DNA of 64,000 bases from Dictyostelium discoideum (Eukaryota), in contig CM000151.3 of the NCBI GenBank assembly GCA_000004695.1, forward strand, positions 1,184,001-1,248,000, given 5' to 3'. Both the position numbers and the translations under genes were made by a program. The number at the start of each line of letters is the position of its first letter. Positions within the stretch are counted from its first letter, which is position 1. The notes beneath the pieces are model-generated. The model searched no databases, was not told where the DNA came from, and saw only the letters and a list, made by a program, of their open reading frames with translations. Below are positions 9,194 to 54,792 of this stretch, piece after piece.

Positions 9194-9224
<31 letters not shown>

Positions 9225-9465
9225 AAAAATATAAATAAAATATAATAATAAAAAAAAAAATAGTGCTAATAAAAAAAAAAAAAAAAAAAAAAATAATGAT
9301 AATAATAACAATTATAATTAATATAATGAATAATAAAAAAAAAAAAAAATAATAATAATAATAACAAATAATAATAATAATAAATAATAAAAAGAAAAAA
9401 AATTTGCATAATTCAATATAAAGCAAATTAAATTAAGTTTTGTTTATTTTAATTTTTTAATATTT

Positions 9466-10641
9466 TTATTTTGGTAGAGAACCTTCTAAAGCTAATAAAG
9501 AAAGGGGATGAATTGGTTTGTTTTTATCAACATAATTGAACCAAATTGTTGGTTCTTTACCACGTAAATTGAATGACGTTAATTGATCTAGTGGCACATA
9601 AATAGCGCCCATACTTTCATAATTTGGAATGAGACGAGGTGGTTGATTTTCATCGATTGGTTCAGCATAAAAAATGACACGCATTCGTGAGTAATTAACC
9701 ATTGGACTAAATTCCACTCTGAGTATACCTTTTAATTCAATGTCAATACCAGTTTCTTCTTTTGTTTCTCTGATAGCACATTGTTGTAAAGCTTCATTAA
9801 CATTTAATTTTCCACCAGGTAACCAATACCCACGACCTGCAGCTTCATTGACTAATAAATAAGTATTATTTGATCTTTTTCTAACTACAACCAAACAAAA
9901 TGCATATATTTTTGAGAGTGATAATTGCTTTTCAGTTGGTGCACCTTTTTCACCATGAGATTCATGTAAATGAACACCCATTCTTTCCATTGGTCTAATA
10001 TTACAAATTGGACATAACGGTATTGAATTTTCAATATCATTTAATGAACAATTACAATGAAATATGAAAATATGTTCCCTAAGATGATCTTGGGATAAAT
10101 TTGTTGCAAATCCACTCTTATGACAAATTGTACATTTAAAATCACCAGATTTATCAATTGATGTAGTTTCAACGATTTTCAATGACTCTATAACATCATT
10201 GATTTTATTTGTAACTAATGAACTACCATTTTTAAATAATTTACATAGAAACATTGGGAATAATTTATCATTAATTTCATCTCTTCTTTTAGATTCCATT
10301 GAAATAGTTGAGTCGTCAATATCAATAAAAGTAACAATGAATGAATTCATTTTTCTCTTTTCTCTATATTCCACAATTGTTTTAGTTTTATTATCTATGA
10401 ACTCCATAATAGAACTCTCATTTGAACTTACTTGTTTATCTATTAAAATATGAATTAAAATTGCAACAATTGGATAATCACTTTTATATTCATTTAATAT
10501 TTTATTAGTTTCATTTTCATCACTACTCTTTATTATCTCTTTAAATTTTCCTTGTTTTAAAAAATTATTTAAAAAATTATCTTTTTGATCTTTTGAACTT
10601 TCTTTATTTGAAAAAAATATTGATTCAATTAATAATGACAT
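9466..10641 (-). CDS. Nudix hydrolase-domain protein with an N-terminal Di19/KCMF1-type C2H2 zinc-finger pair; single exon, 391 aa
   Basis: A Nudix box GGKLNVNEALQQCAIRETKEETGI (G-x5-E-x7-REUxEExGU) lies in the C-terminal half. The zinc-finger pair is CTICHKSGF..HLREHIFIFH followed by CPICNIRPMERMGVHLHESHG, which fits the zf-Di19 C-x2-C..H-x3-H pattern. A real ATG is at 10641. Confidence 0.85.
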   Translation of the reverse strand: MSLLIESIFFSNKESSKDQKDNFLNNFLKQGKFKEIIKSSDENETNKILNEYKSDYPIVAILIHILIDKQVSSNESSIMEFIDNKTKTIVEYREKRKMNSFIVTFIDIDDSTISMESKRRDEINDKLFPMFLCKLFKNGSSLVTNKINDVIESLKIVETTSIDKSGDFKCTICHKSGFATNLSQDHLREHIFIFHCNCSLNDIENSIPLCPICNIRPMERMGVHLHESHGEKGAPTEKQLSLSKIYAFCLVVVRKRSNNTYLLVNEAAGRGYWLPGGKLNVNEALQQCAIRETKEETGIDIELKGILRVEFSPMVNYSRMRVIFYAEPIDENQPPRLIPNYESMGAIYVPLDQLTSFNLRGKEPTIWFNYVDKNKPIHPLSLLALEGSLPK

Positions 10642-18035: not shown

Positions 18036-19332
18036 CTTTTTTATCATCATTCTTTTTAACTAATTCACCATCTTGATTAATAAATATTTTAACAGTTTCA
18101 TCAACTTTGCTATTTGAATTTTCATCACCTTCTTTACCAATTGGTTTGAATTCATTTGAATAATCATCTTTGCTACCAAAATAATTATTACTATTATTAT
18201 TATTATTTACAAGTTTATTCGATGTTGTTGTTGTGGTTGTGGTGGTGGAAGTAGAAGGAGTGGTGGTAGTTGTCTTTTTATTATTAATTTCACATACATA
18301 TTCTTCAGTATCTGAAAATATATTATCATCATCTTCTTCATCAATTATATCTTTATTTTTATTTTTAATATTAATATCTTTATTAATTGTTGTATTTTCC
18401 TTTATATTTTCTGAATCTGAATCTGAAAATATATTATCATGGACATCATCATCAGCATTTTTAATGCTATTATTATTATTGTTATTAATATTATTATTTG
18501 ATGTAGAATCTTTGAAAAATAAATTTTTATCAGGATGATAATAATTTGTGAACATTTTCAATAATGTATTATTAATTGGTGCAGCCATTGTTTGTTTAAT
18601 TTTTGGACAATCCTCTTTACTATTTAAAATTGTAGTTGGTATATGTTGTGGAAAATCTGGGTCTAAATCAAATAGATATAACATTCTACTAGTTTGAAAT
18701 ATTTCTTTATTATATTGTTTCTGTTGTTGTTGTTGTTGTTGCTGTTTAAATTTAGTCTCTTTATCCAAAGATTGTAATTGTTGTGCTAATATTAATTTCC
18801 CAATTTCTGATTTACATTTTATTTTTGATAATCTTTCTTTTTCTTTTTCTTTTTGATTTTGTTGCTGTAATTGTAATTGTTGTTGTTGTTGTTGTTGTAG
18901 TTGATCATTTCCTTGTGATGTTGGTTGTTGTTGTTGTTGTTGTTGTTGCTGTTGTTTTAATTGCTCTTTTGTTGTATATAGTAAATTAAAATCTAAACCT
19001 TTTTTTAAAGTTGTTTCACTATTATCTACATCATTACTGTTATCATTATTATTATTATTACTACTACTACTATTGCTATTACTGTTATCATCATCATTTT
19101 TATTTTGTCTTCTTTCTCTTGCTCTATCTTTATAATTTGGGTCTATCTTTTCTGGGGCTGTTTGATAATATTCATAGTCTCTATCTATCCATTTCTTTTT
19201 TTTAGGTTTATTGTTATTTTTATTATTATTATTATTATTATTAGTATTAGTATTTTCACTATTATTGCTTGATTGACCTAATAGATTTCGAAAATCTTGG
19301 TTTGATAATTGTTTATTACTATCATTATTCAT
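17188..19332 (-). CDS. Low-complexity acidic poly-Q/poly-N protein (714 aa) with an internal duplication
   Basis: A single ORF runs from the ATG at 19332 to the stop at 17188. (CAA)n encodes Q26 and Q9 runs. DGELVKKNDDKKDK..QQIDIYDNDD occurs twice, and DEYAYPNTD[AE]NYE occurs twice. I recognise no domain. Confidence 0.7.
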
Positions 19333-19797
19333 TCAATAATTTATGGTTTTGTGATTTTGGATAAAAATAAATTTAAATAAAAAAAAAATGTAAAAAAAAA
19401 AATAAAAAAAAAAAAAAAAAAATGTAAAAAAAAAATAAAAAATAAAAAAAAAATAAATAAAATAAAAATATTCAAATAATGGTGAAACTTCTTCTTTGTA
19501 AAAAAAAAAATAAAAAAATAAAAATAAAACTTAAAAACATAAAATTGAACTTTTGAAAAAAAAAAAAAAAAAATAAAAATAAAACTAAAATTATTACAAA
19601 ATATAAAAATGAACTTCAAAACATAAAAATGAACTTCAAAAAAAAATAAAACTTAATAATTTATTAATAAAAAATAATTTAACATCAGAAATTAATAATA
19701 TTATTATATTTTTTTTTTTGTTGAAGATATTTTTCCTTGGAAATATCTCAATACCATTTTTTCAAATCTTTTTAAAACCCGTTACCGTAAAATTTTC

Positions 19798-19832
<35 letters not shown>

Positions 19833-19889
19833 TTACTATTTACCGAGTGATGGGGTGTCGATAATAAAATAGGATAAGAAAAAAAAAGA

Positions 19890-22800
19890 ATGAAAACAAT
19901 ATCATTGCTTTTCTTTTTAATTATTTTTTTTTTTATAATAAAGAATATAAAATCAGAACAAACTGAAATTTATAGTTATAATTTCAATAATAATAATAAT
20001 AACATTAATAATATTAATAATAGTAATAATTTAATAAATATTTATTTAAGTTTAAGATTTGGAAATGATTCGTCAGGAAATGGAACTTTATCAAACCCAT
20101 TTCAAACTTTTTGTAAAATAGAATCCGTGTTAAAATCACAAAATAATAATAATTTAACAATAACAGTAAATGTTGGATATGGTCTTTATGATCAATCAAA
20201 TTGTATCTATTTTTCATTAGATAATATTAATTATGATATTATTATAAAATCTTATAATGATAGTAATAATATTGGCAATACTATGGAAAGTATTAGTATT
20301 GGTGGTAGTGATGGTAGTGATGGTAGTAGTAGTAGTAGTGATAATAATGAAATTATAGAAGGAAAAGTTTTAATTCATATTTATTTAAATATTATAAATT
20401 GTAAAATAATATTTAAAGGACCATCAATAACAATATATACGTCTGGATTGGAAGTATATAATAATAGTATAATTGAATTTTCAAATGGAGTTCTAGTGAA
20501 TTTTGGATATGAAGATTTTATACATCAAATGATAAGTTCAAAATTGATTTTAATAAATTCATCAATATCATATAATTCATATGGAGCATTAGTATTGGAT
20601 GATTGTATAATGGATATTTTAGATAATAGTACATTAAATAATATTACATTTAGTTTTAATCCAAATGAACTTTCGGCACCATTCAAGGGTATTAAATTTA
20701 CAAATAGTTTAGCGGTGAATTCAATGTTTGGAATGGGTACTTATGATTTAAATGTGACAAATTCAATTCTTCAAGATTGTGTCATAGAAAGCTCAGGTTT
20801 CACAACAATTAGTAGATCAAGAATTGAACAAACAATATCCAATAATTTAAATTTAATTCAAACAATTGATACCAATTCAATGATAAATTTATATGCAACA
20901 GTTTATACTAAAAGATTTGGTGCAAGACTTTTTATCAATCATACCAAAATAATAACATCACCAACAATAAATGCATTACCAATTTTAGAAGTGTATGCCA
21001 ATTCTTATACAAATATTGCAAATTCATTAATTAGTGGTTATCGTAAAACTACACCAATAATTTTAGCGGAAAATGGTGGTGATAGTTGTACAGTGGAGTT
21101 GAAGCATGTTCATATAGAGAATTGTATCTCTTCATCATTGGCGTCTTTAGCTATGAGTACATTGACGATGTATAATATTAGCTTTAAAAACAATTACCTT
21201 GACTCAATGGTGGTTGCAAATGATGCATCTTCTATAGAGTTAAGTGACACAGTAATAAAATGTGAAGATAACAATCAATTCCTTTCAACTATAACAATGC
21301 CAATTAATCCCAATAGTCCATACAGCCGTCCATTCTCTTCAAGAAGTACAGTGGTATTGAGTAATATGAACTTGCAATGTGTTGGTCCATTTGATTTTCA
21401 AAATTCAACAGTCACTTTTTTAAATATAACAATGTCATCATTATTTCAAAGTGCCTATGTTTCTCTATATTCAAATACTACTTTAGATGTCGCCACAAGT
21501 AGTTTCTCTTCAAGCTCGTATAATGGTGGTCAATTGTTTAGTTTGGGCGATAGTGGTATTTTGTATATTCTATATTGTAACTTTAATCAAAGTGCATCAT
21601 CAATAGTCCAAGGAAATGAAGGCTCAACTGCATTCATTGATTATTCAAATTTTTACAACATAAAATCCGATTACAATGCATTATTTGTTATTGCAAACTC
21701 ATCATTGATCATTTCAAATTGTTACTTTGAAAATATTCAAACCTCTCAAACAAGTTTAATCTCTGGTACCGATTCAATCATTTCCATTGAAAATACCACA
21801 TTGAAACGTATTGGTGTCTATTTAATGGAAACGTCAGATTGTAAAATCTTTATCACTGACGTTACAATGACCAATTGCTTTACATTAATGAATAAGTTAT
21901 TCATTTCTGTACGTGACCATATCACAATTCATTCTTCAAGATTTATAGATAATCATGGATATGGTGGTACACTAATTTCAACATATTCCAGTACAATCAT
22001 CTTTTCTGTTGTTGAATTTAATGGTAATTCATTCACTCCACTACTAAGCTCATTAGGATCAAGTGTTTATCTTACAAATGTCACCTATTACAATAATTCA
22101 GGTTCATTCATTGGTAGTACTAGTGATTTGGTTGAAATTAATCAATTCCAATATGAAAATAATAAAGCACCTTGTGATTATCTATTCAGTTTATCTGGTT
22201 CCTCACCTGTGATCATGAAATCCATAACCATAGAAAATAATTACTTTTCACAATACCTCATTTTCTTTACAGAAGTACATGGTATAGAAATTTCCAATTT
22301 CCAATTCATTAACAATATTGTAGTTTCAGTTAATTCACCATCACCATTCTTTGGAATTGGTTATTTTAATGCAACTTTACAATTTACTTTATGTTCCAAT
22401 ATTTCTATAGATGGTCTTAGAGTAGAAAACAATTCAATAGGGTCTGTGTTTTTATCAAATTATCTTTCTGATTTGGTTTTAAATAATTTATTCATCTCTT
22501 CAAATACATTCTCTGATAAATTTGGTGACTTTTTAAAAAGTTCAAATTCAAGTCTAATAATTGAATCTTCAGATTTTCAAAATAACATTAATAGTATTGA
22601 CTCGGTTTTATTGTCAATCATTGATACTAATACTACAATTGATGATTGTATTTTCTTTGGAAATCAAAATCCAAATGGTATTGGATCGGTATTAAATTTG
22701 GCAATAGAAAACCAACTTTATTACTTTACAATTATCAATTCATTATTTGATTCAAATTTTGCTTTAAATGGTGGAGTATTTGGCTTTACTGGTATTTCAG

Positions 22801-24028
22801 ATTACAATGAAGATGCATTTATTAATCCATTATCTAAATTCAATAATAATACTTTTAAAAACAATTTTGCATCTCAAAAAGGTGGTGTAATCTATACTGA
22901 TTACTTTACATTTTCAAATAATATTTCAAATATTTTAAATTTAAATAATTTTGAAAATAATACTTCATTACTTGGTCCAAATTTTTCATCTGGTATGTAG
23001 TAAATAATTTTATTATTATTATTAAAATTTAAAATATATTATTAACTTTTTTTAAAATTTATTTATTAGAAATGAACTTTAATATTATTGAATTTTCAAA
23101 TTTACCAGATGGTTCAACAGCAATAATTAAATATAGATTTATTGATTATTATAATAATACATTTACACTTTATTCAGATGAATTAAATTTTAAAATTATT
23201 AGAAATTCAAATGATGATCAAATAATTTATGAAAATAATGTAATGGCAGGTCAAGGTAGTTTTTTTTATAATTTTCTTGGAAAAGCTGGTGAAAAGTATA
23301 CTTTTGAATTTAATAATCCATTCAGTTTTAATCAAACCTTTTTCGTTGGCGATTGTTTACCATACCAAATCTATTTAAATTCAAGTGAAACTTGTTCATA
23401 TTGTCAAAATAATTATGCATATAGTCAATCATATGGAAAATGCTATTCATGTGATTCAGAAATAATGACATGTTTAACCTCAACTGTATTTGCAATCGAT
23501 GGTTATTATATAGTGAATAATGATGTTTCAATGGTTGAACAATGTCCATTGGATATGTGTCTTTCTTATAATCTTTGTACATCAAATTCTAGTTTTGGTG
23601 ATTTATGCTTTAGTTGTAAAGATGAATATGGTAATTTAGTTCAAACAAAGAATGGTATAAGATGTTGCTCACATTTTAAACCAATACTTTTAATACCAAT
23701 TTTAGCATTCCATTTACTATTTTCATTAGTATTATCATTAATTAAACACAATAGTTTTAGAATACCAATTAATCAAATTATAATATTCCTTCAAATTAAT
23801 TCAGTAGTATTCTTTTCATATAGTGGTATTTACATTTTACCATTATTCAGAATGTCAGTAGATATGTTAGATGGTTATTGTCTATGGGAAGGTTTAAATT
23901 ATAATTTCAAAAGTTTTTTATCATTTTCAATTATAATTTCATTATTTTTAATTGATTCAACTGATATTACACCTTCAATTTTAATTAAAATTTATAAAAT
24001 AATTTTATCATCATCAACATTTTACAAA

Positions 24029-39493: not shown

Positions 39494-42400
39494 ATGTCAA
39501 CACAACAAGCATTAGCTCAGGCTAATGAACATGCTTTAAGCCAAGCAAATGGTAATGTTATTTAAATAAAATAAAATAAAAAATTATTTATTTATACTAA
39601 TTTTTCTTTTTTTTAAATATATATATATATATAGATTTAATTAAAGTTGGATCAAAATTAAGAGCATTAAGTGTCTTAAGAGATTTATTAAGTGATCGTA
39701 GTCAATGGCATTCAAGTTTAGAACAAATTATGTCATTATACGTTTCATTATGTGCTGAACAATTAGATTATCAATCATTAAGAGATGGTATTCATCATTT
39801 CAAAGTTTCAATCATGTCACAAAAGGAATTCTCAATTGTACCATTAGAAAATATCTTTAAAGAAATCATTACACCAATTGAACAAAAAGTAGACGAATTA
39901 AAAGAGAAAATTGAAAAAGAAAATCAAGAGAATCCATTAGTTGAACAAAATGAAATCTCACTCATTGATCCACAACAAACTCTCTTATTCTCTTATATGA
40001 AATATTTATTTGAAGCTTATAAAGCAATGATTGAAGTACTCACTCGTCAAAATACTAAATTTGAACATACTAAATTTGATCATTCTAAATTTGATTCAAC
40101 TTTACTTGTAAGTATTTTTTTATTTTAAAAATAACAAATATTTATTTATATATTAATTTTTATATTTATTTTTATTTTTTTTAAAAAGAAAATTTCAACT
40201 CAAGCATTAAATTATTGTTCAAAATATCAAAGAAAACCAGATTTTATGGTATTAACAGAATTATTTAGATCAAGTATTGAACAATTATTTAAAGTACCAT
40301 CATTGGATACAGTGAATACTCATATTGAAATTCGTTTCCATCAATTGACCGTTGCAATTTCATTGGGATTATATTTGATTGCTTACAAGTCAATTGAAGA
40401 TATTAATATTATGTTATTCTCATTGTTAGTTAAACCAAAGCCAGTAGTTTTAGCAACATACTATCAAAAGTTGGCTCAAGTCTATTGGATTACCAATGCT
40501 CATTTATTACATGCCTACGCATTATATAAACATTATGTTTACAATAAGAATTATAATATGAATTTCACACAAGCCGATTCTCAATTATACTCTTCAGTAT
40601 TATTGGTTGCTGCATTATCATCACCAATTCAAGAGGTTAATCAAAATCAATCATTATTACAATTTGATTCACAATCACAAAGAGCTATGGGATTGGCATC
40701 ATTGTTGTCACTCCAATCCATTCCAAAACGTGAAACTTTCCTCGTTGACGTTCGTAAGGTTACCAATGAAGTTTATCCAGAGTTGGCCGATCTCGCTTCA
40801 ATCTTTGAGAAGAAAACATCACCATTGATGTTTGCCAAGCTTTTAGAGCCAAAGATTAAATTCATCGAAGGTCACGCACAACTCTCTCAATACTTAAAAC
40901 CATTCCTTCGTGTAGTTTTCACAAAGATCGCTCTTCAAGTTAGCAAAGTCTACGAAGTTATCAAGATTGAAGAATTCATTAAATTGGTACCATTCTATAC
41001 AAAGACTCAAATTGAACTCTACCTTTTGGAATCAATAAAGAGAAAGTTAATCGGTGCTAGAATCGATCATAAGAATGGTGTAATTCGTTTCGGTCACTAC
41101 GACTTTGACTCTGCCAAAATCTCTGATCAATTATCAAACTTGGCCACTGGTGTTGGTAAAGCTTTGAATATGATTGAACCAGAAAAGAAACAACAACAAC
41201 ATGATAAACTCAAGAAAGAGGTCTACGTCAAGATCATCAATTCACTCCAAGATGAACATCGTCGTATTCTCGCTCGTAAGGAAATCATTGAAAAGAAGAA
41301 AATCTACATGGAACAACAAGATCGTATCAAGAAACAAAAAGAACATGAAGAACTTCAAAAGAAAATCCAAGAGAAAGTCGCTCGTGATCAACAACGTCTC
41401 AAAGAGGATATGGAACGTCGTGAAAAAGAACAAGCCGAAGAGGAATCACAACAAAATCAACTCGATCAAACCATCAATGCCATCGATAAAGCCAAGGTTG
41501 AAATGAAAGCCAAGATCGCTAAAATCGCCAAACAATTGTACATTCTCGAACGTGCCTACCGTGAAGAGGAATTACCAGTCGTTGAAAGCCTCCAAAAAAC
41601 TAAAGCCGTCGAAGATAAGCAATACTTTGAATCAACTCAAGCCGAATTCCTTAAACTCCATCGTGAAGTTCATGACCGTAATGTCACCGAAAAAGCTCGT
41701 CTCAACAGAATCGTACCAGAATATCAAAAATTCACTCAAGCCGTCATCGAAGAGAGAAAGAAACAATTACCAGCCCTTCAAAAGGAGCAAGAAAAGAGAT
41801 TCCAAGAGTTCCTCATTCAACAAGAACAAGATGTCCAAGAGAGAAAGGCAAAGAGAGAGAAAGCTCGTATCGCCGCTGCCCAAGAAAAAGCTAGAAAGGA
41901 AGAACAAGAAAGAGAAAGACTCGAACAAGAACATTTGGAACAAGAACGTTTGGAAGAAGAGAGAAAGAATGCTCCATACGTTCCACCATCTTCAAGAAGA
42001 ACTTTCAGAGACGACGATGATGAACGTGAAGAAAGTGGTAGATGGGGTGGTAGACGTGGTGGTGATGATTTCGGTAGATCCAAAGCTGATGAAGGTGATC
42101 GTTGGGGTAGACGTGAAGATGCTCCACCACCAAGACGTGACGAAGGTGGTGATCGTTGGGGTAGACGTGAAGATGCTCCACCACCAAGACGTGATGAAGG
42201 TGGTGACAGATGGGGTAAACGTGAAGATGCTCCACCACCAAGACGTGACGAAGGTGGTTGGGGTAGACGTGATGATGCTCCACCACCAAGACGTGACGAA
42301 GGTGGCGATAGATGGGGTAGACGTGATGATGCTCCACCAAGACGTGATGATGCTCCACCACCAAGACGTGATGATGCTCCACCACCAAGACGTGATGAAG

Positions 42401-42750
42401 GTGGTGATCGTTGGGGTAGACGTGATGATGCTCCACCAAGAAGAGATGGAGGTGGTAGTGGTGGTTTCGGTGGTAGACGTGATGATGCCCCACCAAGACG
42501 TGACGAAGGTGGTGATCGTTGGGGTAGACGTGAAGATGCTCCACCACCAAGACGTGACGAAGGTGGTGATCGTTGGGGTAGACGTGATGATGCTCCACCA
42601 AGAAGAGACGGTGGTGGTGGTAGTGGTTTTGGTAGAAATCAAGGAGCCCAAGGTGATCAAAACGATAGCTGGAGATCCGATAACAAAAAAGAAGAAAACA
42701 AAAAAGATGCTGATGGTTGGCAAACAGTTGGTGCCAAAAAGAGATATTAA
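39494..42750 (+). CDS. eif3A: Eukaryotic translation initiation factor 3 subunit A (eIF3a, PCI-domain, with a C-terminal R/D/W-rich decapeptide repeat array), 3 exons, ~1030 aa
   Basis: Exons are 39494..39551 (MSTQQALAQANEHALSQAN, donor G|GTAATG, phase 1), 39635..40107 (acceptor atatatatag|AT..; donor CTT|GTAAGT) and 40189..42750 (acceptor ttaaaaag|AAA ATT). Matches to human EIF3A are KISTQALNYCSKYQRKPDF for IAQQAFKFCLQYTRKAEF, EHRRILARKEIIEKKK for EHQRILARRQTIEERK, more than 12 tandem RRDDAPPPRRDEGGDRWG units for the human DDDRGPRRG repeats, and the end DADGWQTVGAKKRY* for DEDGWTTVRR*. Confidence 0.9.
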
Positions 42751-43401
42751 ACTCTTTATTCCACTCTTTTTTTAATCATTGTTTTTTAATTGTATATCAT
42801 TACTTATTATCTACATCTTTTAAAAAAAAAAAATCATTAAAATAAAAAAATAAATAAAAAAAAAAACTTATAAAAAAAAAAAAAATAGAACAAAACAATT
42901 AAAATCATAAAAATAAGTTAATGTTTTATTTGAGATTGTTGAAAGGATCGATTTCCAATCATTTAATAATTAGTCAAATATTTGACTATAGAACTATGAT
43001 TACTAAATAAAAAAGACATTAATTTAATTAATTTAAGCTTTCAAATAATTAATATGAATTTACCATATGGTAAATTTTGTGGGAAAGGTTAATACCACCA
43101 CATGTGGTTATTCTTCATATTTTTTTTTTTTTTTCCAACACATGTGGTTATTCTTCATATTCTTTTTTTTTTTTTTAAACTTATTCTATTTTTAAACACA
43201 CCTAAATATAATAAAAAAGCTATTTTTTTAAATTATTTTTATTATTATTTTTTTATTATTTTAATTAAATTTTTATTATTATTGTATTATTTATTTTGTA
43301 ATTATTAATATTATTTTTTTTATAATTTTTATTATTATATTATTATTTTTTTATTATTATTACTATTCAAAAAGGAAATATTTGGATAAAAATTATTGAA
43401 A

Positions 43402-43975
43402 ATGGTATTGATTTTTTTTTTTTTTTTAATTTTTGATTTTTTAAATATTCTTTTTCCTTTTTTTTTTTTTTTTTTTTTTTTCATTGTTGTAATTTTTTTT
43501 TTAATTTTAAAAATGTTTTTTATTAACACTGCTATTAATAAATTAAAAAAAAAAAGGAAATTAAAAAAAATAAACAGGAATTATTAACAACTGGTTTAAA
43601 TGAAATTTCAAGGGATTCAGTATATCAACCAATAATAAATATATTGAATAAAATTAGTAGTGATAGGAACAATTATAAATCATTCAAAATAAATTATTCC
43701 AAAGAAATTAGAGAGTTATTAGATATAATTAAACCAGCACAAAAATTAATTACAGAATCAACTCAAGTAAGAATAGATTTTATTCAGACAAAAAAGATTG
43801 ACCATGAAATATTTAAACCAATAATCATTAATATTGAAAGGGTTAATGAAATTAATTCTATTATAAAAGATAATGAAGAAAATGGTAGTGGTAAAAATGA
43901 ACAATTACCAACAACAACAACATCTCTAATGGATTATTCTAAAACAACTAAATCTCAATCATCAACATTATCATC

Positions 43976-44013
<38 letters not shown>

Positions 44014-47000
44014 ATTTAATAGTAGAATTAAAAAAACTATTAATAAAATATTCAGAACTTCATCAGATGTATATTAATCAACTTTTTGAAAAAGCAAACA
44101 AACGTGTAACCATTTTATTTGATGAATGTCCATTATTTATAAATGATAGTTTAATATTTAGAGAAATGGATTCATTAACAATGGTATACGATATTATATC
44201 ATATGATAGTCAAGAACATTGTTTCACAAAGAAATCTGAAAGAGGGACTTGCTCTGGTGTAATAATGAATAATGTATACTTTAAAACTGATAATGGCTGT
44301 GGATTACTTAGACCTGCAAAAGAGAATGCTGTATTTGAATTCTATAAAGATCTTTACCCTGAATCTTCAAAAGGTTCATCATTTGTTTCGCCAACTAGCT
44401 TTATGATTATTACTGAAATTCCAATTTTACCGTCATCTCCAATTGAATGTTCAAAAAGAAAAGAATTGATTGAATTTAAAAGTTTATATAAAACAAATCA
44501 TGCTAGATCAGTATACCTTAGAAATCTTGAGTTTGAACGTGATATTCTAAATTCAAGAGTTAGAACTAATGTATCGACCCAGGCTTCACTTTTAGTAAAG
44601 GGTGAACCACTTGATAAACTAATTGAAAAAAATCGTGATAGAATGGAACGATTTGAAGATTCATTAGATAATGAAAGTTTTGGTGCTCATATTTTATCAA
44701 GTTTATTATTGAATACAACAGATTATAAACCAGATAATATTTTCATTGAAAGTACTACAAATAAAATCATTGGTATTGATAATGATGAATGTATGGAATT
44801 TTATGAAATTCAACAAGGTGCAGATGGAAAACAATATGTCCATTTCAAAAATATATTATTTTTACTTAAGAAAAAAATGTCAACCAAAGTGAACCAAAAA
44901 ATTCGGGAACAATATTTGAAGCATCAACCAAATACTTTTATTTTATCTTGGTTATTAAAAATACTTGAAAAAGATAAGAATTATAAGAATTTAGTTGATT
45001 TAGCTTTTCCTGATGATCAATCACTACGTAATCAAACTAACAGTAGTTTAAAATTACCTTTTACATTTAAAAAAGGTTGGATAAATTCAATGTTATCAAG
45101 ATTTAAATTGATTAAAAGTTTATTAAAAATAAATAATTATAAAAATGGTGGGGAAATTGGTGGTGGCGGCGGTGGTGTTGGTGTTAGTAGTGGTAGTGGA
45201 AGTTTTTATGGAATAGTTAGTTATCAAGATTTATTTAAAGAGGTTTTGCCACTTGCATATATTTACTATCAACGATTGGAATCTGAAAGTATTGGAGACC
45301 CAATTAATCAAATTAAAATAGTATATGAAAGAGAATTTTCATTTGGAGATTTACTTTTTAAACATGATATTGAAGCAGAGCCAAATAAACATAAAACAAT
45401 GAAATTTGTTGAAAGTAAAGAAATATCAATTATTGAAACTATTAAAGAATTAATATTAAATTCAGGAGAAAATGATTTTGAATCACCATCTGATTTTATA
45501 AAATGGTTAGAACAAATTCTTATGTTTAAAAATTCTATTGATATTAGTAGTAGTAGTAGTAGTAGTGGTATTGGTGAAATTAAACTTCATGAATCATTTT
45601 ATAAATCAACAAAATCAATAATTGCAAATCTTTTTAAAGGTGAAGCAGATTTTAAATTAATTAATGATTTTATTAATTTTACAAATTTTAATATTAAAGA
45701 ATTATCAGAACCAACAGTATTTTCATCATCAAAAAATGATGATGGGGCTAATGAAATACAACAACCTTTACTTCATTCAACAATTTATTCAAAAAATTTA
45801 AAATTATTTGATCAAATCAAATTTATTATTAATAATTTAAATGTTAATATTGATTTAGTTAATGAAAAAGGTTTAACAGCATTAGATTTATCAGCAGAAT
45901 TAAATAATTTTAAACTTTTTATTTTATTAATTGAATTGGGTGGTGGTAAAGTTTTCAATTCATCAATTATTAGTAAATTTTATAATTCATTAAAAGCAAA
46001 AGAAAAATTAGAGTTTAAACCATATTTACAAGTTTTATTTCATACCAATCCAAATGCAGCATGGTGTATTTCTTTAAATTGTTTATTACCAGAATATAGC
46101 GGATCACAATTGGCTTTAAATAAACATATCAAAACCATTTCAACCGTTGTAAAAGGTAGAAGAAAAATTTCAGAAGAACATTTTTATTCATTGTTTGATA
46201 GATATGGAGAACCATTAAAAACAAATCAGTATGGTTCTAGTGCTGTACCTTCAATTAAAGATGAATATGGTAATTGTATTTACATTAAATTTAATCCACA
46301 ATTTCCAGGCACAGATATTGCAGTTACAAAATTATCAGAGTATTTATTTGGTCACTGTTCACCATGTTGTGAATTAGGTTCAATAGAAGAACTACCAGTT
46401 TTATTGGTTCAAGAGGTATATGGTGAACCATTAATTAATGTTTTAGAGAAAACACCGGAAATTATAGATAAACTTGATCCATTAAATATTTCAAAACAAT
46501 TAATAATGGGAATTTTAACAAATAATGCAGATGGTAATTTAGGTAATTTTATAATTACTTCAACACCTAAAAAACCAATTTCTAAATCAACAAATAATCT
46601 TGAAGAATCATGTGAAAATAAATTTAAAATTTATTCAATTGATAATGAACAATGTTTTATGCCATCAACTTCAAAACAAACAGAATCAGATACTTCACTT
46701 TTAAATAAATTTAAATTACAAGTAGAGACAGCAATTTTATTATTCAACCAAATGAATGACAATGTTCATCAAGAAGTAATTAAACGTATAAAATCATTAG
46801 ATATTAATGAATTTTGCGAAAAATGGTTACATTTTTTAGAGAAACAAAATTCATTATCATTGGTTCATTTTAAAGAATTGGGACAACAATTAAAAAATCA
46901 AAAGAAAACTATTGTCGGAGTAAATTTTATTAATGAAATGATGAAAACTTTTTATACAAAATTAGCAAGACTTCAACATCATTTAACAATTGCAGAAGAA

Positions 47001-49247
47001 AATATTACTCATTTACAATTATTAGAAAAATTAGAACCAATGATTGCAGAAAGAATTAAACCAATTTTAATTAGCTCAGCCAATGAATCAATTATTAAAA
47101 GATATTGGAAATTAAAAAATGGTTGTACACAAACTATTATTGTTAGAAATTCAAGTTATAATTTAGAACTTACTAGATCAAATAATCCTTCAGCATTTTT
47201 AGCACAACCAATTGATAAACTTAACCCACAAGATATTGAAAATCAACTTTGGGAAGGCCATTATGATCCTGAAAAAGCATTGAGAGAATTTAAAGAAATG
47301 AAAATAGAATTTTCAAAAATTAGTCAAATTTTTAATAATATTAATGATGGTGTCATTGATAGCATTTCTGATTTAGATTTAACAGAATTTTTAAAAAAAA
47401 CAAGTTTTGATAATTTAACAAAAGTCCAAAGTAATAAAATATTTGAAACTTTAAAATCAAGATCAATCAATATCATTCATATTAAGAATTGTGAATATTT
47501 AAAATTAAGAATTTTTAAACATTTTAATTTAGAGAAATTAACAGAAATTGATTTATCTGGTTGCACAAAATTGAAATGTATTAGAAATGGTTTAAATACA
47601 ACTTTAACATTGGCATCTCTAAAAATATTAATAGTTAGAAATTGTATAAAATTAATGGATTTAAAATTAAAAGCAGATAATTTAGAAACTTTAATAGCAT
47701 CAGATTGTTTTAAATTAAAAGAATTTGAAGTTAATTCACCAAATTTAAAAATTTTAAATTTAAATTCATCAATTAATAATCCTTTAATTTTCAATTGTTT
47801 AAACAAATATAAGAAATTAACATTTTTAGATATTTCAAAATCAAAGGGAATACCAGTGATTGAATTTGATTTTCAAGAATTAAAATTTTTAGATGCAAAA
47901 TCAATTGCAGGTTGTAATAAAGTAATTTTAGATTTACCAAAAATTGAATTAATAATTTTTGAAGGTTGTAAAGATTTGAGAGAAATTAAGTCAAAATCAA
48001 ATCATCATTTAACATGGAAGGCTTTAAAATCAAATTCAAATAAATTAATCTTTAATGAAAAACAAATTAATTTAAATTTAATTGGTCCAGATTTAAAAGA
48101 GTTACCAATTGGTTGTGAAAGTGAAATCGAATTAATTGATCCAAATCATTTTCAATTATATTATGGTGATGTTGATGAAATGAAAAATAATCAGGAAAAG
48201 AATTATTATAAAATTAAAAGTTTAGTAATTGGAAATATACCAAAAACTGTCAAATCTTTAATATTGCATGATTCATTTTGTCATTTATTATCACCTGGAA
48301 TAATACCTGATAGTGTAAAAACTTTAAATCTTTATGATATTAAAGCTCCATTAGATGTTGGTTCAATACCATCATCAGTAAAGAGTTTAATATTAAATAA
48401 AGGGTTTGGTCGTATACTAACAGAGGGTATCATACCAAATGGTGTTGAAAATTTAGATATATATGATATTAAACTTCAATTAGAGATTAAATCAATACCG
48501 TCATCAGTAATATCATTAAAATTTCATGATGGGTTTAATCATGATTTAAAACCTGGTATCATTCCAAATGGTGTTAGAAATTTACAAATTCAAAATTTAA
48601 AAAAACCATTGGTTATTGGCTCTATTCCTCAGTCTGTTAATAGGTTAACAATTAATCAATCAATACAATTTAAATTAATACCTGATATTATACCATCAAA
48701 TGTTAACTTTCTTTATTTATATGATGTTAAAGAAGAATTACAAATTGGTTCAATTCCTTCAAATGTAAAATCTTTAGCATTAAATTATAAATTTAATTCC
48801 CCATTATTACCAAAAATAATTCCAGATGGTGTGGAAACCTTAGATCTATATAATGTATTACAACCTTTACAGCGCGGTTCAATACCATCATCAGTTGATA
48901 CATTAACTATTCATGATGGATTCAATCAGATTTTAAGGAGATCAATCATTCCAAATAGCGTTAAAACTCTTCATCTACATGACATAAAACAAAATTTACA
49001 AATTGGTTCAATACCATCTTCAGTAAAAAAATTGATACTTCATGATAAATTCAATCAGAATTTATCTGTTGGTATTATTCCAGAAGGTGTTGAATATTTA
49101 TCTTTACATAATATCATACAAAATTTAGAAATTGGTTCAATACCAAAATCTATGTTACAAATTACATTTGAAAAAAGTTTTGATAAATCAGTACCTCCTT
49201 TTGTAATTCCTAGTGGCACTAAACTTTTATATGCAAATAAAAATTAA
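43402..49247 (+). CDS. Large FNIP-repeat / LRR protein (~1890 aa) with two atypical kinase-like catalytic motifs. The 5' end is modelled as an ATG|GT mini-exon.
   Basis: The main exon is open from 43578 to the stop at 49247, but it has no in-frame ATG before residue ~95 (the track's 'M' at 43644 is TTG). Proposed model: an ATG at 43402..43404 immediately followed by GTATTG, a 173-nt intron, and acceptor ataaacag|GAA at 43578 (phase 0). The body contains DYKPDNIFIES..IGIDNDECM and ADGNLGNFIITS..YSIDNEQCFM (catalytic-loop and DFG-like pairs). An LRR block is NCEYLKLRIFKHFNLEKLTEIDLSGCTKLKCI..LKILIVRNCIKLMDLKL... At least 14 C-terminal FNIP repeats follow, e.g. GIIPDSVKTLNLYDIKAPLDVGSIPSSVKSLILNKGF. 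Confidence 0.8.
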
Positions 49248-49761: not shown

Positions 49762-52700
49762 ATGAATAAAATATTATACTATTTATTATTATTTATATTC
49801 TTCTTTGTACATTACCTTAATTCACAACCACAACAACCACAAGAACAACAACGAGAGCAACAACCACGACTACAACAATCACAAGATATCAATAATGATA
49901 TAATAAATATTTATGTAAATTCAAATTATACCAATAGCAATGGTAATGGTACCATAGTAAATCCATTTCAAAATTTATGTGTGCTTAATAATTTATTACC
50001 AAGATTAAACAATTTAAACAATACAATAATAATAATAAATATAGGATATGGTTTTTATGATATTAAAAAATGCACTTTTTCTCAATTAATAATAAAAAAT
50101 TATAACAATATAACTTTTATACCATATGATTTTAATAATGAGAATAATAATAATAATAATAATAATAACAATAAAATAGTTTTAAAAAATACATATTTAA
50201 TTATTACAAATTCAACAATTAATTTTCAAAATGAAATAATATTAAATTTAAATGGTTTTTCATTTTCTTTTAGTCACATAGAGTTTAATGATGGAGTTGA
50301 AATTAATTTTCAAGGAACTTTACCAACGATAAATTATTGTAATTTAAAATTTAAAAATTCAAAATTTAATTTTTTATACTCCACATCTCATATGGAATGT
50401 ACAAATAGTTTAATTGAATTCATAGGATCAACATTGGGAGGTGGGGAAATTATATTTTATTCAGGTTTAGAACCAATAAAAGATAGTGGTATTATATTTA
50501 GAGATAATAGTTTTTCAATAAAGAATAATTTGAAAATGGCAGTTTATAAATTACATGTTGAAAATTCAGTATGGATAGATTCAACAGTATCAAGTTTTTC
50601 AAGTATTCATTTCAATGAAACTAATATTTTTAAATCACAAAATCAAAATGATAATCAACAACAACAACAAATAGAAGAAGATAATCCAATGTTTTCATTA
50701 TCAAATCAAGATTTATTTAAGATTAATGTAATTTTAAATATAGTGAATTGTAAAATCAATTATATTGATCCACATCAAGGTGAGACAAGTTATTCAATGA
50801 TTTCAATTTTTTCAAGTTTTCAACCAGTTATTCAAATGATTTCAATAAGTAATGTGGAAATCTCAGGATTTAATAGTAAACAACCATTAATTTTTCAAAA
50901 AGGTGAATCAAGTTCATTAGAAATTAATAATGTTCTCATAGAGAATTGTACATCATTACAATTTATAGATTCACAATCTGGTGATATAAAATTAAGTCAA
51001 ATGAAATTTAGAAATAATAAATTTAAAATATTAATTGAAATTAGAAATTCAAATCTTTATTTCTATGAAACTGGAATACTTTGTAGTGATAATAATGATA
51101 TAGGTTTAATGGTATCTTTTGATACTACAACCTATTTGTTAACAGAGGATGTAGAAACAGCAATAACAACAACAACATATGGTCGTAATAATATTTTATT
51201 AGAGAATTTAGTTTTTCAATGTTCAGGTTTATTTAATTTCATTAAATCTGATATTAGAATTGAAAGTGTTAGAATGGAATCATCATTTAAAAATTCATTA
51301 ATTTCACTTTATAATGATTGTTCAGCACAAATATCCAATAGTCAATTACTTTCAAATTCATTTGAATCAAAGTCATTATTCTATATAAATTCAAGTCAAT
51401 TATTTATATTTAATAGTGACTTTAGTGGTAGTACTGCATCATTTGTTTCAGCATGGAAAGATTCAATAATTTATTTAGAATCTACAAGTTGGAATAAATT
51501 ATTCTCAAAGGGTAAACCAAATTTTATTATCGAGGAATCCTATTTACATATTACAAATTCAACATTTGATGGTGTTCAATCATCTAGTGCACTAATTGAA
51601 AGTTATAAATCATATATTGATATTAGTAATACAACGATTAATGCATTTGGTAGTAAATCAATTCTTTATAGTGAATCTTCTCAATATGTAATTCTTAGTG
51701 ATTTGGTTTTAAATGGTTGTTTCTCTCAAGATCAATTATTTTATATATATCAAGCTCAAACAGTTGATATAAAAAGATGTATTTTTAATAATAATCGTGG
51801 ATATGGTTATAATTTATTTAAATTTATAAATTGTACCACTGTGAATATAGAGTTTACAAAGTTTATTGGAAACTCATTCTCACCATTAATTCAAAGTTAT
51901 CAATCAAGTTTAATTTTACAATCGATTACATTGATTGGTAATTCAGGTTCGTTCATTAATAGTATTGGTGATGTCATTGTGAAAGTTTATAATTTAACTT
52001 ATACAGATAATTTAATAACCTATGACTATTTATTTGTTTCTGAAAATACTCGATCGATTATTCTAAATTCCATAACTATCAATAATAATTATTTCAATAA
52101 TTTTTTATTCATTTTTGATAATGTATCAAATTTATTTTTTAATGATTTCACTTTATCAAATAATCTATTAAGTGAAATCGATAAAAACGATACACCAATG
52201 ATACTTTTTCAAAATTGTCAAATCACTTCATTCATTAATTTCAATATTATTAATAATTCAATTTCAAAATCATTATTCAAGTCTACAAATTCTAGATTGG
52301 TTTTTGCTCGATTAATATTTTCATCAAATCAAATCACTGGTATTGATAATAGTTTCATTGATTCTTTAACTTCAAATATTATAATTACAAATTCAATAAT
52401 ATCAAATAATAATGGTAATTGTAAAAGTTTAATAAATTTAAATGCTTGTTCTTTAACTATAGATTCAACTAATTTCCAAGGAAATTATTTCATTCAAAAT
52501 GGTGATGGATCAATTATTTCTTATAAATCTATTATCAATGAAAAGATTGGTAATAACTTTTTTCAAATTTCAAATTCAATATTTTATAATAATTTTGGGA
52601 AATTTGGTGCTGTTTTTTCATTTTATAATTTCTCACTTTTAAATGATACAAAATATCCAATCATTAATAATAATAGTATATTCAATAATAATAGTTTTAT

Positions 52701-54792
52701 TTCAAATACTGCCACTCAACAAGGTGGTGTTTTCTATACAAAAAATTTTTTATTTAATTTAAATTCAACTTTATTTAATTCAAATATTTTTTTAAATAAT
52801 ATTGCATTTTGTGGTATAAATTTTTCTTCAGGTTAGTATTATATAATTTATATAATAAATTTATATTTTTTAAGATTTACTAATAATTATTAATTATTTT
52901 TAGAATTTAATAAAGTAATATTTAAAAATAAAAATGTAATTAATGGTTTAAATTCATTAATTGAATATAACCTTTTAGATTATTATGGTAATATTTTTAC
53001 ACCATTATCAACTACTGTTAATATTAGTATAACAAGAGTATCAAATATGAAATCAATTATAATACCAAGTGTTATTATTGTTGGAGTTGGAAATTTTAAA
53101 TATCAATTTATTGGTGATTTTGGTGAAAATTATATTATTGAAACTATTAATGGTGATAATGATGATGATAATGATAATGATGATGATAAATCAAATATTT
53201 CATTTAAAGAAACAATTATGGTTTTAGGTTGTTTACAATATCAATATTTTAATGAAACCAATGATAGTTGTAATTATTGTTCAGTTGATTTCTCTTACAG
53301 TCCTTCATTAAAAAAATGTTATCAATGTGATCCTGATAAAATATCTTGTTTAACTTCATCAGTTGTTACAAATGATGGTTATTATTTAGTGAATCAAGAT
53401 GTTTCCATGGTTGAAGAATGTCCAGTTGCAATGTGTCTATCAAATAATACTTGTCTTTCAAATAATAGTTTTGGTAATTTATGTTTTAGTTGTAAAGATC
53501 AATTTGGAAATGTAATACAGTCAAAAAATGGTATAAGATGTTGTTCAAGTTTTAAACCAAATTTAATCATACCAATATTAATAATAGTTTATTTAATTTT
53601 TGGTTTATCATTATCATTATTAAAATATAATCTACTTGAAAAACCAATTGGTCAAATTATAATATTCCTTCAAATTAATTCTGTGGTATTCTTTTCATAT
53701 AGTGGTGTTTACATTTTACCATTATTCAGAATGTCAATTGACCTATTTGATGGAGTTTGCCTATTTAAAGGTTTAAATGCAAATTATAAATTTTTCATTT
53801 CACTTTTTATTATTACCTCATTATTTTTCATTGGTTCAACTGATATTACATTAAATCTATTAGAATTTACTTTAAAAAGAATTTTCAAATTTTCAAATTA
53901 TCCAAACTTTTTAAATAAAATTTTAATTGGTAAAGTTAATCAAGGTAAAATTTATAAATGGAAATCAATTTGGTCATTATATCAAATATTTATAATACCA
54001 TTATTATTTAATTCAATTTGTTTCTTAATTTCAAAAACTATAAATAATATTGATTATTTATCAATTGATTTTTCAATTAATTATAAATCAAAAATTAATC
54101 AACTTTGTATTACTCTATCAATTATAATTATTTTAATGATATCATTAATTTCTATAATTTCAATTATATCATTTTTAATTTTCAAATTTAAAACTTTAAA
54201 AAGAATTTTAAAAATTAATAATAGTAATAATAACTCAAATGATAATAATAATAATAATCAAAATTCAAATAATAGAAAATTAAAATCATATTTCATTTCA
54301 AAATTAAATTTAATATTTTTAAATTTTTATAGATTACAATTACAATTAAATTATAAAAGAAATTTTAAATATTGGGATAATTTAATATTATTAAAATCAT
54401 TATTATTAGTGATATTATCAATTTCTTTTATTTTTAATTTTAGTCATTTTATGACTTTTGTTATAACAATTCAAATCATATATACAACAATTCACTTTCT
54501 TTTTAATCCAATTAAAAAAGAACTATTACCAATAACAAATTTTAATAATTTAACAAATCTATTACAATTAATTATTTTCATCATTTCAGATTCAACATTG
54601 CTTAAATCAGTTTCATTATTTAATCAAGGAAAAATTTTAACAAGTTTATCATTTTTATTTTCTTTATTTATTTGTTTTAGTTATTATTATTATTATTACT
54701 ATTATTATTTTAAAAGAAATAATTTTTCAACAACAACAACAACATCAACAAATAATTTTGATTTTAAATCAAATCAATTAAAAAAATTATAA
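49762..54792 (+). CDS. Paralogue of the 19890..24907 gene: a secreted Pmp/beta-helix-repeat + Cys-rich + multi-TM protein (~1652 aa), 2 exons
   Basis: Exon 1 is 49762..52831 (MNKILYYLLLFIFFFVHYLNS signal; donor TCA G|GTTAGT, phase 1). Exon 2 is 52904..54792 (acceptor ttatttttag|AA TTT). The splice lies at the homologous ..SSG|E.. position of the paralogue. The conserved Cys-rich block is CNYCSVDF..CYQCDPDKISC..CPVAMC..CFSCKDQFGN..GIRCC, followed by TM helices. Repeat motifs include FISNTATQQGGVFYTKNF. Confidence 0.85.

Follow-up and report, generated by a model that had tools for sequence, protein, structure and literature searches.

A dictyostelid gene with a probable start-codon intron and twin atypical kinase-like cores on a chassis shared with bacteria

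Herein we describe a long gene on the + strand of a 64,000-nucleotide stretch of DNA from Dictyostelium discoideum (assembly GCA_000004695.1, contig CM000151.3, positions 1,184,001 to 1,248,000 of the forward strand), which is called the window below and whose own numbering is used throughout. The window has about 22% G+C, with homopolymer-rich spacers and with trinucleotide repeats inside coding sequence, and the gene follows eIF3a, its upstream neighbour, with a frame that is open from 43542 to a stop codon ending at 49247. The reading of the locus that we favour, with about two chances in three of being right, is that of an intact gene in which a start-codon intron joins the ATG at 43402 to position 43578, giving a protein of about 1,890 residues with two atypical kinase cores, an ankyrin linker, leucine-rich repeats (LRR) and FNIP repeats, on a chassis that is shared with bacteria. 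From the N-terminus, the predicted layout would be a helical region, core 1, a linker of helices and ankyrin repeats, core 2, another helical region, an LRR block of the cysteine-containing type, and finally sixteen FNIP repeats. Residues are numbered with the first codon of exon 2, a glutamate, as 1, and the numbering of the full protein is obtained by adding 1.

As for the start of the gene, the earliest ATG in frame, at 43929, is codon 118 when counting begins at 43578; an earlier note on this DNA had placed the ATG-less part at roughly 95 codons, which is right as to an open frame without ATG and too short as to its extent. With the stop-codon frequency of the window, 129 open codons ahead of the first ATG would arise by chance with a probability of only about 4e-6 to 8e-5. 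The proposed initiator ATG (43402..43404, +), in the context AAAATGgtattg, would be the final 3 nt of exon 1 and is directly followed by a 173-nt intron of phase 0 (43405..43577, +) that begins with GTATTG, ends with aataaacAG and restores the frame at the GAA of 43578, whereas without splicing the same ATG would be read out of frame and reach a stop after 61 codons. These are the marks that define a start-codon intron, namely GT...AG ends, phase 0 right after the ATG, and a restored frame downstream. Moreover the intron has a G+C content of 10.4% against 22.5% across the next 351 nt of exon 2, and it carries a branch-point-like TTAAC motif near 43527. Its length is normal for D. discoideum, since introns in this species have a mean of 133 nt and a median of 104 nt (PMC4683709). 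Exon 2 (43578..49247, +) then supplies 1,889 codons and the stop, needs no more introns, and is aligned with relatives along its full length.

Further evidence comes from closely related genomes, namely the locus in assembly GCA_054859355.1, which is labelled Dictyostelium discoideum (hereafter L001), and the locus in an assembly labelled Dictyostelium cf. discoideum (hereafter L002). The window between 33 and 59 kb is collinear with the L001 contig at 88-96% identity, and L002 is similarly close; for the sister genome of L001 a nucleotide identity of 92-96% was obtained. L001 keeps both AAAATG|GTATTG and the aacag|GAATTA acceptor, while its intron has 156 nt instead of 173, a difference of 17 nt that is not a multiple of 3. 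The NCBI gene model of L001 spans 9216..9953 and has a 193-aa product, and the segment 9375-9953 translates to 192 residues and a stop; since 193 residues equal one methionine plus the 192 codons from the acceptor, the model is exactly the ATG, the intron and exon 2. Thus an independent annotation pipeline arrived at the identical structure.

The ATG, the GTATTG donor, the 173-nt intron and the cag|GAA acceptor named in the earlier note are accordingly all present, conserved in L001 and used by its NCBI model. Two of its wordings went too far. The ATG at 43402 was called the only consistent start, which is overstated in view of an alternative acceptor at 43555-56 and of another upstream ATG|GT at 43067; and exon 1 was called a start-codon-only exon, which should rather be the 5' untranslated region (UTR) plus the ATG. 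Transcription would begin upstream of 43402, and the 173-nt intron would then be removed so as to join the ATG to the GAA of 43578, or less likely to 43557. Start-codon introns form a documented and over-represented class in eukaryotes, although the survey that established it did not include Dictyostelium (Nielsen and Wernersson 2006, PMC1626468). The likeness lies in a phase-0 intron directly after the ATG, with a first coding segment of ATG alone; the difference is that the proteins in that survey are short, lysine-rich and conserved, whereas the window protein is long and fast-evolving.

Two other starts were tried and rejected. The ATG at 43067 (ATG|GTAAAT) is not conserved, as L001 reads GGTGGTAAAA there, and it needs a 508-nt intron; the ATG at 43513 is out of frame and without a usable donor, and stops at 43584-86.

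The choice of acceptor merits more attention. With the same ATG and donor, splicing to a second phase-0 acceptor, the AG at 43555-56 (aaaaaaaag|GAAATT), would add the 7 residues EIKKNKQ and give a protein starting with M-EIKKNKQ-ELLTTG. This AG is in phase, it is the first AG past the branch-point-like TTAAC and so nearer to it than the acceptor at 43578, the frame is open in the window and in L001 alike, and the extra KKNKQ is loosely like the KRKDQ and DKNQ seen near the N-termini of D. purpureum paralogues. That likeness may just reflect A-rich DNA, however, and the L001 model takes the CAG, with a 193-aa product that fits this acceptor alone. An AAG is moreover a weaker acceptor than a CAG. 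We therefore regard the longer form as rather improbable.

Besides the proximal AG, several observations weigh against a start-codon intron at this place. The donor GTATTG departs from GTAAGT, the Dictyostelium donor consensus, and the D. purpureum paralogues are without the intron. A word-indexed protein search with the 130-residue N-terminus had no matches, not even the L001 fragment, and in an exact look-up against a collection of 15 billion proteins neither the protein starting with M+ELLTT... nor the version starting at Met118 was present. The pentamer ATGGT by itself is weak proof, for when the 827-nt upstream region is shuffled, 25% of the shuffles contain it one or more times. Taking all of this together, the ATG at 43402 followed by a phase-0 intron is still the best-supported start model on the available sequences, and the gene structure is plausibly resolved as an ordinary one of a known class.

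The N-terminal 117 codons without ATG (43578..43928, +), which are predicted to be helical, are coding. Paralogues from D. purpureum and D. dimigraforme have N-termini that align with them (IKPAQKL...HEIFKPI), for example IKPAQKLITES..IDHEIFKPIIINI versus IKSPKQLLNIN..NNHQIFKPIHTNI, and the sole indel between the window and L001 in this stretch is one of 18 nt, in frame, right after the acceptor. As the D. purpureum N-termini start within a few residues of the M+ELLTTG start, no large upstream exon should be missing. A sign of constraint is not seen here in the ratio of non-synonymous to synonymous substitution rates (dN/dS), which is 1.55 in the first 117 codons compared with L001, from 3 synonymous and 19 non-synonymous changes; the interruption of the gene in L001 could have relaxed the constraint on these codons there.

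It may thus be asked whether translation starts instead from the internal ATG at 43929 (Met118), or whether the start has been lost and the gene is an unexpressed pseudogene, the upstream frame being in either case a relic. The ratio of about 1.5 would suit such a relic, as would the ease with which ATGGT arises in shuffled upstream DNA; two relatives (P0001 and P0002) were annotated automatically from internal methionine codons, and the orthologue has a frameshift in L001 and has been cut short in L002. On the other side, 129 codons in a row without a stop are very improbable by chance, the ATG-less region aligns with distant paralogues, the indel against L001 preserves the frame, and the remaining frame is stop-free along 1,889 codons with a dN/dS of 0.34. 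We consider a start at Met118 or a dead gene to be very unlikely, and the translated N-terminus joined to the ATG of 43402 to be the better account.

The disruption in the sister genomes deserves description in its own right. In L001 the frame breaks within a (TCA)n(ACA)n repeat, and the one gene is annotated there as two proteins of 193 aa and 1,719 aa; at 9780-9953 of that contig, which corresponds to about 43960-44020 of the window, a short repeat of Ser/Thr codons has grown to some 35 TCA codons with CAA repeats behind them, and the frame is shifted. This may mean either that the gene has truly become a pseudogene there or that the assembly is in error at a simple repeat. In L002 a deletion (9420-9990) has taken away promoter, ATG, intron and about the first 40 codons, with the 3' end of eIF3a abutting about codon 40; a 1-nt deletion makes a stop, and the FNIP-coding end is located at 18818-19929, about 5 kb further along the contig. 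There the NCBI model fuses part of the gene to eIF3a, giving 1,173 aa versus 1,020 aa. The window copy is intact, in contrast to both. The whole gene has a dN/dS of 0.34 against L001, while the neighbouring eIF3a has 0.044, at a dS of about 0.06-0.08. On these comparisons the gene seems to evolve fast in amoebae and to be sometimes lost. In three related genomes it has been truncated or split by automatic pipelines because the start-codon intron was missed or mishandled, and the importance of this intron is one of annotation only.

Of more weight is the protein itself, with its pair of kinase-like cores, whose boundaries were drawn from alignments of nine relatives. Core 1 (aa 185-530; 44130..45167, +) has the catalytic loop DYKPDN at 44721-44738 and IDND at 44775-44786, which belong to the motifs DYKPDNIFIES (aa 382-392) and IGIDNDECM (aa 398-406). 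Core 2 (aa 845-1135; 46110..46982, +) has Lys904 in YIKF, the catalytic loop DGNLGN at 46530-46547 within ADGNLGNFIITS (aa 984-995), and IDNE at 46638-46649 within YSIDNEQCFM (aa 1019-1028). The motifs are as the earlier note had quoted them, and its view that the two pairs mark homologous kinase-like domains is borne out by profile-profile alignment (hhalign), where core 1 and core 2 match with 98% probability and an E-value of 1.4e-13 over 226 aligned columns, core 1 having an insert of about 45 residues. No further copies of the core were found elsewhere in the 64-kb window.

The residues expected in an active kinase are kept across the family. In relatives of core 2 these are K904 (147/159), E/D913 (146/159), D985 (153/159), N990 (150/159) and D1022 (153/159); in relatives of core 1 they are D382 (90/92), N387 (88/92), D401 (89/92) and K236, present in all 52 sequences that could be aligned there. 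The beta-3 lysine, the acidic residue of the C-helix, the catalytic Asp and Asn and the metal-binding Asp that belong to the protein-kinase-like superfamily are thus all found. Considering that the catalytic residues are kept in both cores across about 150 relatives, the pseudokinase proposed earlier is unlikely, and two competent active sites would be expected rather than a pair of kinase and pseudokinase. Since Lys, Glu, Asp-x4-Asn and Asp-Asn-Asp are kept in both, we infer that both cores bind ATP-Mg and transfer phosphate.

Structure prediction, which had been proposed as a check, was carried out for core 2 and gave a bilobal kinase fold, with an N-lobe beta-sheet and C-helix and with a helical C-lobe containing the catalytic loop, and the top 50 Foldseek matches are all kinases. 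The kinase fold of core 2 is therefore shown at the level of a moderate predicted model, and core 1 would be kinase-like by its homology to core 2. Among the structural neighbours are PI4K2A and MavQ, which have phosphoinositide substrates, and actin-fragmin kinase, CotH, CtkA and Fam20, which have protein substrates. PI4K type II-alpha (PDB 4pla, 4hnd; family PI3_PI4_kinase) shares 13% identity and has neither a tandem duplication nor LRR/FNIP fusions, unlike the window protein. The CotH spore-coat protein kinase (PDB 5jda) is likewise a structural neighbour without relationship at the sequence level, and consists of a single domain. The suggestion of an actin-fragmin-kinase-like module holds in so far as the Physarum enzyme (PDB 1cja) is among the four solved structures nearest to core 2; it does not hold further, since the Act-Frag_cataly model has no match, PI4K2A and CotH are structurally at least as close, and the accessory domains of the Physarum enzyme differ.

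Membership of the established families was considered and rejected, as no Pfam model for the actin-fragmin kinase, Pkinase or PI3_PI4_kinase families reaches its cut-off. In the Pfam check proposed earlier, which was run with hidden Markov models (HMMs) on the whole protein and on the cores, FNIP was significant; the Act-Frag_cataly HMM had no match at E <= 1, the Pkinase HMM had no match, and PI3_PI4_kinase and the LRR models stayed below threshold. PI3_PI4_kinase (PF00454) gives 16.1-16.8 bits on core 1 (E 0.007-0.011), below its gathering cut-off of 27.1 bits, and among the 9 sequences of core 1 it matches 3, among the 23 of core 2 none, all below threshold. The cores are accordingly best described, as far as sequence comparison goes, as old copies of a single protein-kinase-like domain for which Pfam has no family.

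Several results count against taking the cores for kinases. No Pfam kinase model is significant for the whole protein or for the cores, and searches of PDB sequences with the cores, both by phmmer and by profile, had only chance matches. Moreover the core 2 model is of moderate quality, with a predicted local distance difference test score (pLDDT) of 60 and a predicted template modelling score (pTM) of 0.55, and its Foldseek E-values are all above 1e-3. In addition, kinase-like folds are known that perform other chemistry, namely SelO, which catalyses AMPylation, and SidJ, which catalyses glutamylation (PMC6858067). With such precedents, and with a family that is remote from every characterised kinase in sequence searches, the cores might have a kinase-like fold without kinase action, as pseudoenzymes or as enzymes of AMPylation or glutamylation. 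Yet hardly any sequence, be it from bacteria or from amoebae, departs from the canonical Lys, Glu, D-x4-N and D-N-D in either core, the broad consensus loop, DGKPDN, has the look of the D-x-K-P-x-N loop in eukaryotic protein kinases, and the nearest solved structures are all active kinases. A fold deprived of phosphotransfer is thus, in our estimate, an unlikely outcome, and we continue with the cores as probable phosphotransferases.

The remainder of the protein is made of repeats. The linker that separates the cores has ankyrin-like repeats (aa 729-788; 45762..45941, +) in the form of sub-threshold matches, with Ank_2 at 12.9-16.1 bits against a cut-off of 27.3 and Ank_4 likewise; in the same linker of relatives Ank_2 is faint in one protein (P0006) and reaches E 0.0021 and 19 bits, also sub-threshold, in a bacterial open reading frame (ORF; L012). 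After core 2 comes a probable block of LRR of the cysteine-containing type (about aa 1291-1500; 47448..48077, +), again with matches below threshold, which are LRR_At1g61320 (E 5.6e-5, 23.1 vs 26.9 bits), LRR_4 (E 2.6e-4, 21.6 vs 27 bits) and an XopL LRR match at E 0.0063. At the corresponding position of three bacterial homologues, LRR_6 scores 133-170 bits in two, and the third (L018) has only LRR_4 at 28.6 bits. The C-terminus is occupied by sixteen FNIP (IP22) repeats of 21/22 residues (48237..49244, +), where Pfam FNIP (PF05725) finds 12 stretches with 221.6 bits and E 8e-67 against a cut-off of 21 bits, and where 16 regularly spaced IPxxVxxL units can be counted from aa 1554 to 1884. Of the features read earlier from the letters, the 14 or more FNIP repeats are confirmed in this way, and the LRR block following the cores, with scores in this protein that are sub-threshold, is a probable one.

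FNIP repeats are a structurally defined subclass of the LRR solenoid, and their fusion to kinase domains has been proposed to give phosphorylation specificity (PMC9525666). The window protein is like these dictyostelid FNIP-kinase fusions in bearing a C-terminal FNIP (IP22) LRR solenoid on a kinase-type enzyme, and it differs from them in that the published fusions, described as 'kinase domains', are read as ordinary protein-kinase domains, whereas here a tandem atypical module without Pkinase match is found. The product would be a cytosolic protein of about 1,890 residues acting as a scaffolded enzyme, in which helical and ankyrin linkers would position two ATP-dependent phosphotransferase cores, while the LRR and FNIP solenoids might select a partner or substrate.

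The family to which the module belongs proved to be large. An exhaustive profile search with core 2 gave 955 clusters at E <= 1e-3, of which 597 reach E <= 1e-10 and 166 reach E <= 1e-30, and the family size is taken from this search, as a word-indexed search with a diverse core 2 alignment gave only 6 proteins. Members mostly have 1,500-5,000 residues, and the short ones are without any Pfam domain. Those with names come from D. purpureum, D. citrinum and a Paracaedibacteraceae genome, and include metagenomic "ankyrin repeat" and "HEAT repeat" proteins; D. purpureum has four paralogues on one 285-kb scaffold. In most of the best 154 clusters core 1 stands ahead of core 2 and some 300 residues of spacer lie between them, which argues that the tandem arrangement is ancestral. 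The duplicated module reported earlier is therefore correct in that the cores are homologous; a duplication specific to the window gene is ruled out by a two-core order that is family-wide, bacteria included, so that the module is an old and conserved possession of most relatives.

In bacteria, a scan with one genome per species gave 20 loci, all of them in metagenome-assembled genomes and often several per genome, in Paracaedibacteraceae, other Alphaproteobacteria, Chlamydiae, Dependentiae and Gammaproteobacteria. Intracellular associates of protists, amoebae included, are known from several of these groups. Three of the homologues are uninterrupted ORFs (L005 3817-11097, L018 3046-9438 and L012 4021-10869) of 2,426, 2,130 and 2,282 residues, with 42-50% G+C and the order core1-(ankyrin)-core2-LRR. 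Their G+C content and uninterrupted frames of several kilobases argue against amoeba contamination of the bacterial contigs. These giant proteins, which are like effectors or toxins, are true homologues with the same domain order, and they differ from the window protein in being encoded without introns, in having the core 2 loop DGKPDN rather than DGNLGN, and in ending with domains other than FNIP. The C-terminal ends of the three are Tox-ODYAM1 with Sel1, a WD40 propeller and a patatin phospholipase, and HEAT also occurs as an ending among the bacterial homologues. Viral contigs scanned for the catalytic-loop pattern contained no relatives.

The bacterial fusions resemble the modular design of effectors and polymorphic toxins, in which the N-terminal part stays constant and the C-terminal part can be exchanged. 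Another side observation concerns a 28-kb contig of a Gammaproteobacteria metagenome-assembled genome (L023), where a 206-aa fragment of core 2 lies among IS3-type transposase genes (rve, HTH_Tnp_1), near a HEAT and PP2C protein of more than 2,867 aa and a Ras and WD40 protein of 1,390 aa; these surroundings suggest mobile, eukaryote-like effector islands as a location of family members.

When a crude neighbour-joining tree is drawn, the known dictyostelid domains all group in one clade, with the loop DGNLGN, and the bacterial sequences are all placed in a separate and much more diverse group with the loop DGKPDN. Such a tree would agree with one transfer, in either direction, between bacteria and dictyostelids. 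The chassis thus points to a reusable host-interaction platform that would have moved between the two. A more specific scenario can be offered tentatively, as a possibility on which we would not rely: the chassis would stand for a family, large and undescribed, of tandem atypical kinases that are active, born as a host-manipulation platform in amoeba-associated intracellular bacteria with interchangeable ends, captured once by dictyostelids, where the payload was changed into FNIP and the copies evolve and are lost fast like a conflict or immunity gene, with cores that may phosphorylate phosphoinositides as relatives of type II PI4K.

The openly searchable literature, looked through for the Legionella pan-kinome, for polymorphic toxins, for FNIP structures and for the Dictyostelium kinome, had no description of the tandem module. 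The Dictyostelium kinome lists four actin-fragmin-kinase homologues, with three among seven borderline sequences (PMC1420674). The module is apparently a branch of the kinase-like superfamily that is unnamed, widespread and undescribed, and it is unusually distributed over bacteria and amoebae. At least 955 clusters share the conserved twin kinase-like module, no Pfam kinase model covers the sequences tested, and the module spans dictyostelid amoebae and four bacterial groups, the latter via metagenome assemblies only. If the cores are active, they would make a new branch within the protein-kinase-like superfamily and a candidate effector platform for the interaction of symbiont and host, with a probable gene transfer between bacteria and amoebae; Dictyostelium is a tractable genetic model in which the module may be tested.

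Some minor features of the locus remain to be described. About 250-300 nt upstream of the proposed ATG, the element CCACATGTGGTTATTCTT, which contains the palindrome CACATGTG, is found in two copies 40 nt apart (43098-43115 and 43138-43155, +), where 0.01 matches are expected against the 2 observed. L001 has one copy owing to a 22-nt gap, and the element may be a candidate promoter element. In the 3' part of eIF3a (42087-42620), tandem repeats encode RRDDAPPPRRDEGGDRWG-like units with a G+C content of about 30-34%, above the rest of the window, and they give multiple staggered BLAST matches between genomes. Downstream of the gene, at 49762-54792, there are two long ORFs of 1,024 and 581 aa which appear to be a single gene of 1,674 aa in L001 (16058-21166), with no Pfam domain on record and no kinase-like core. 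Finally, a 3.7-kb Logan contig (SRR26869268_3705338; L027) encodes exactly the window ORF at 19890-23000, with the next gene collinear, which means that reads from the same or a near-identical strain exist publicly.

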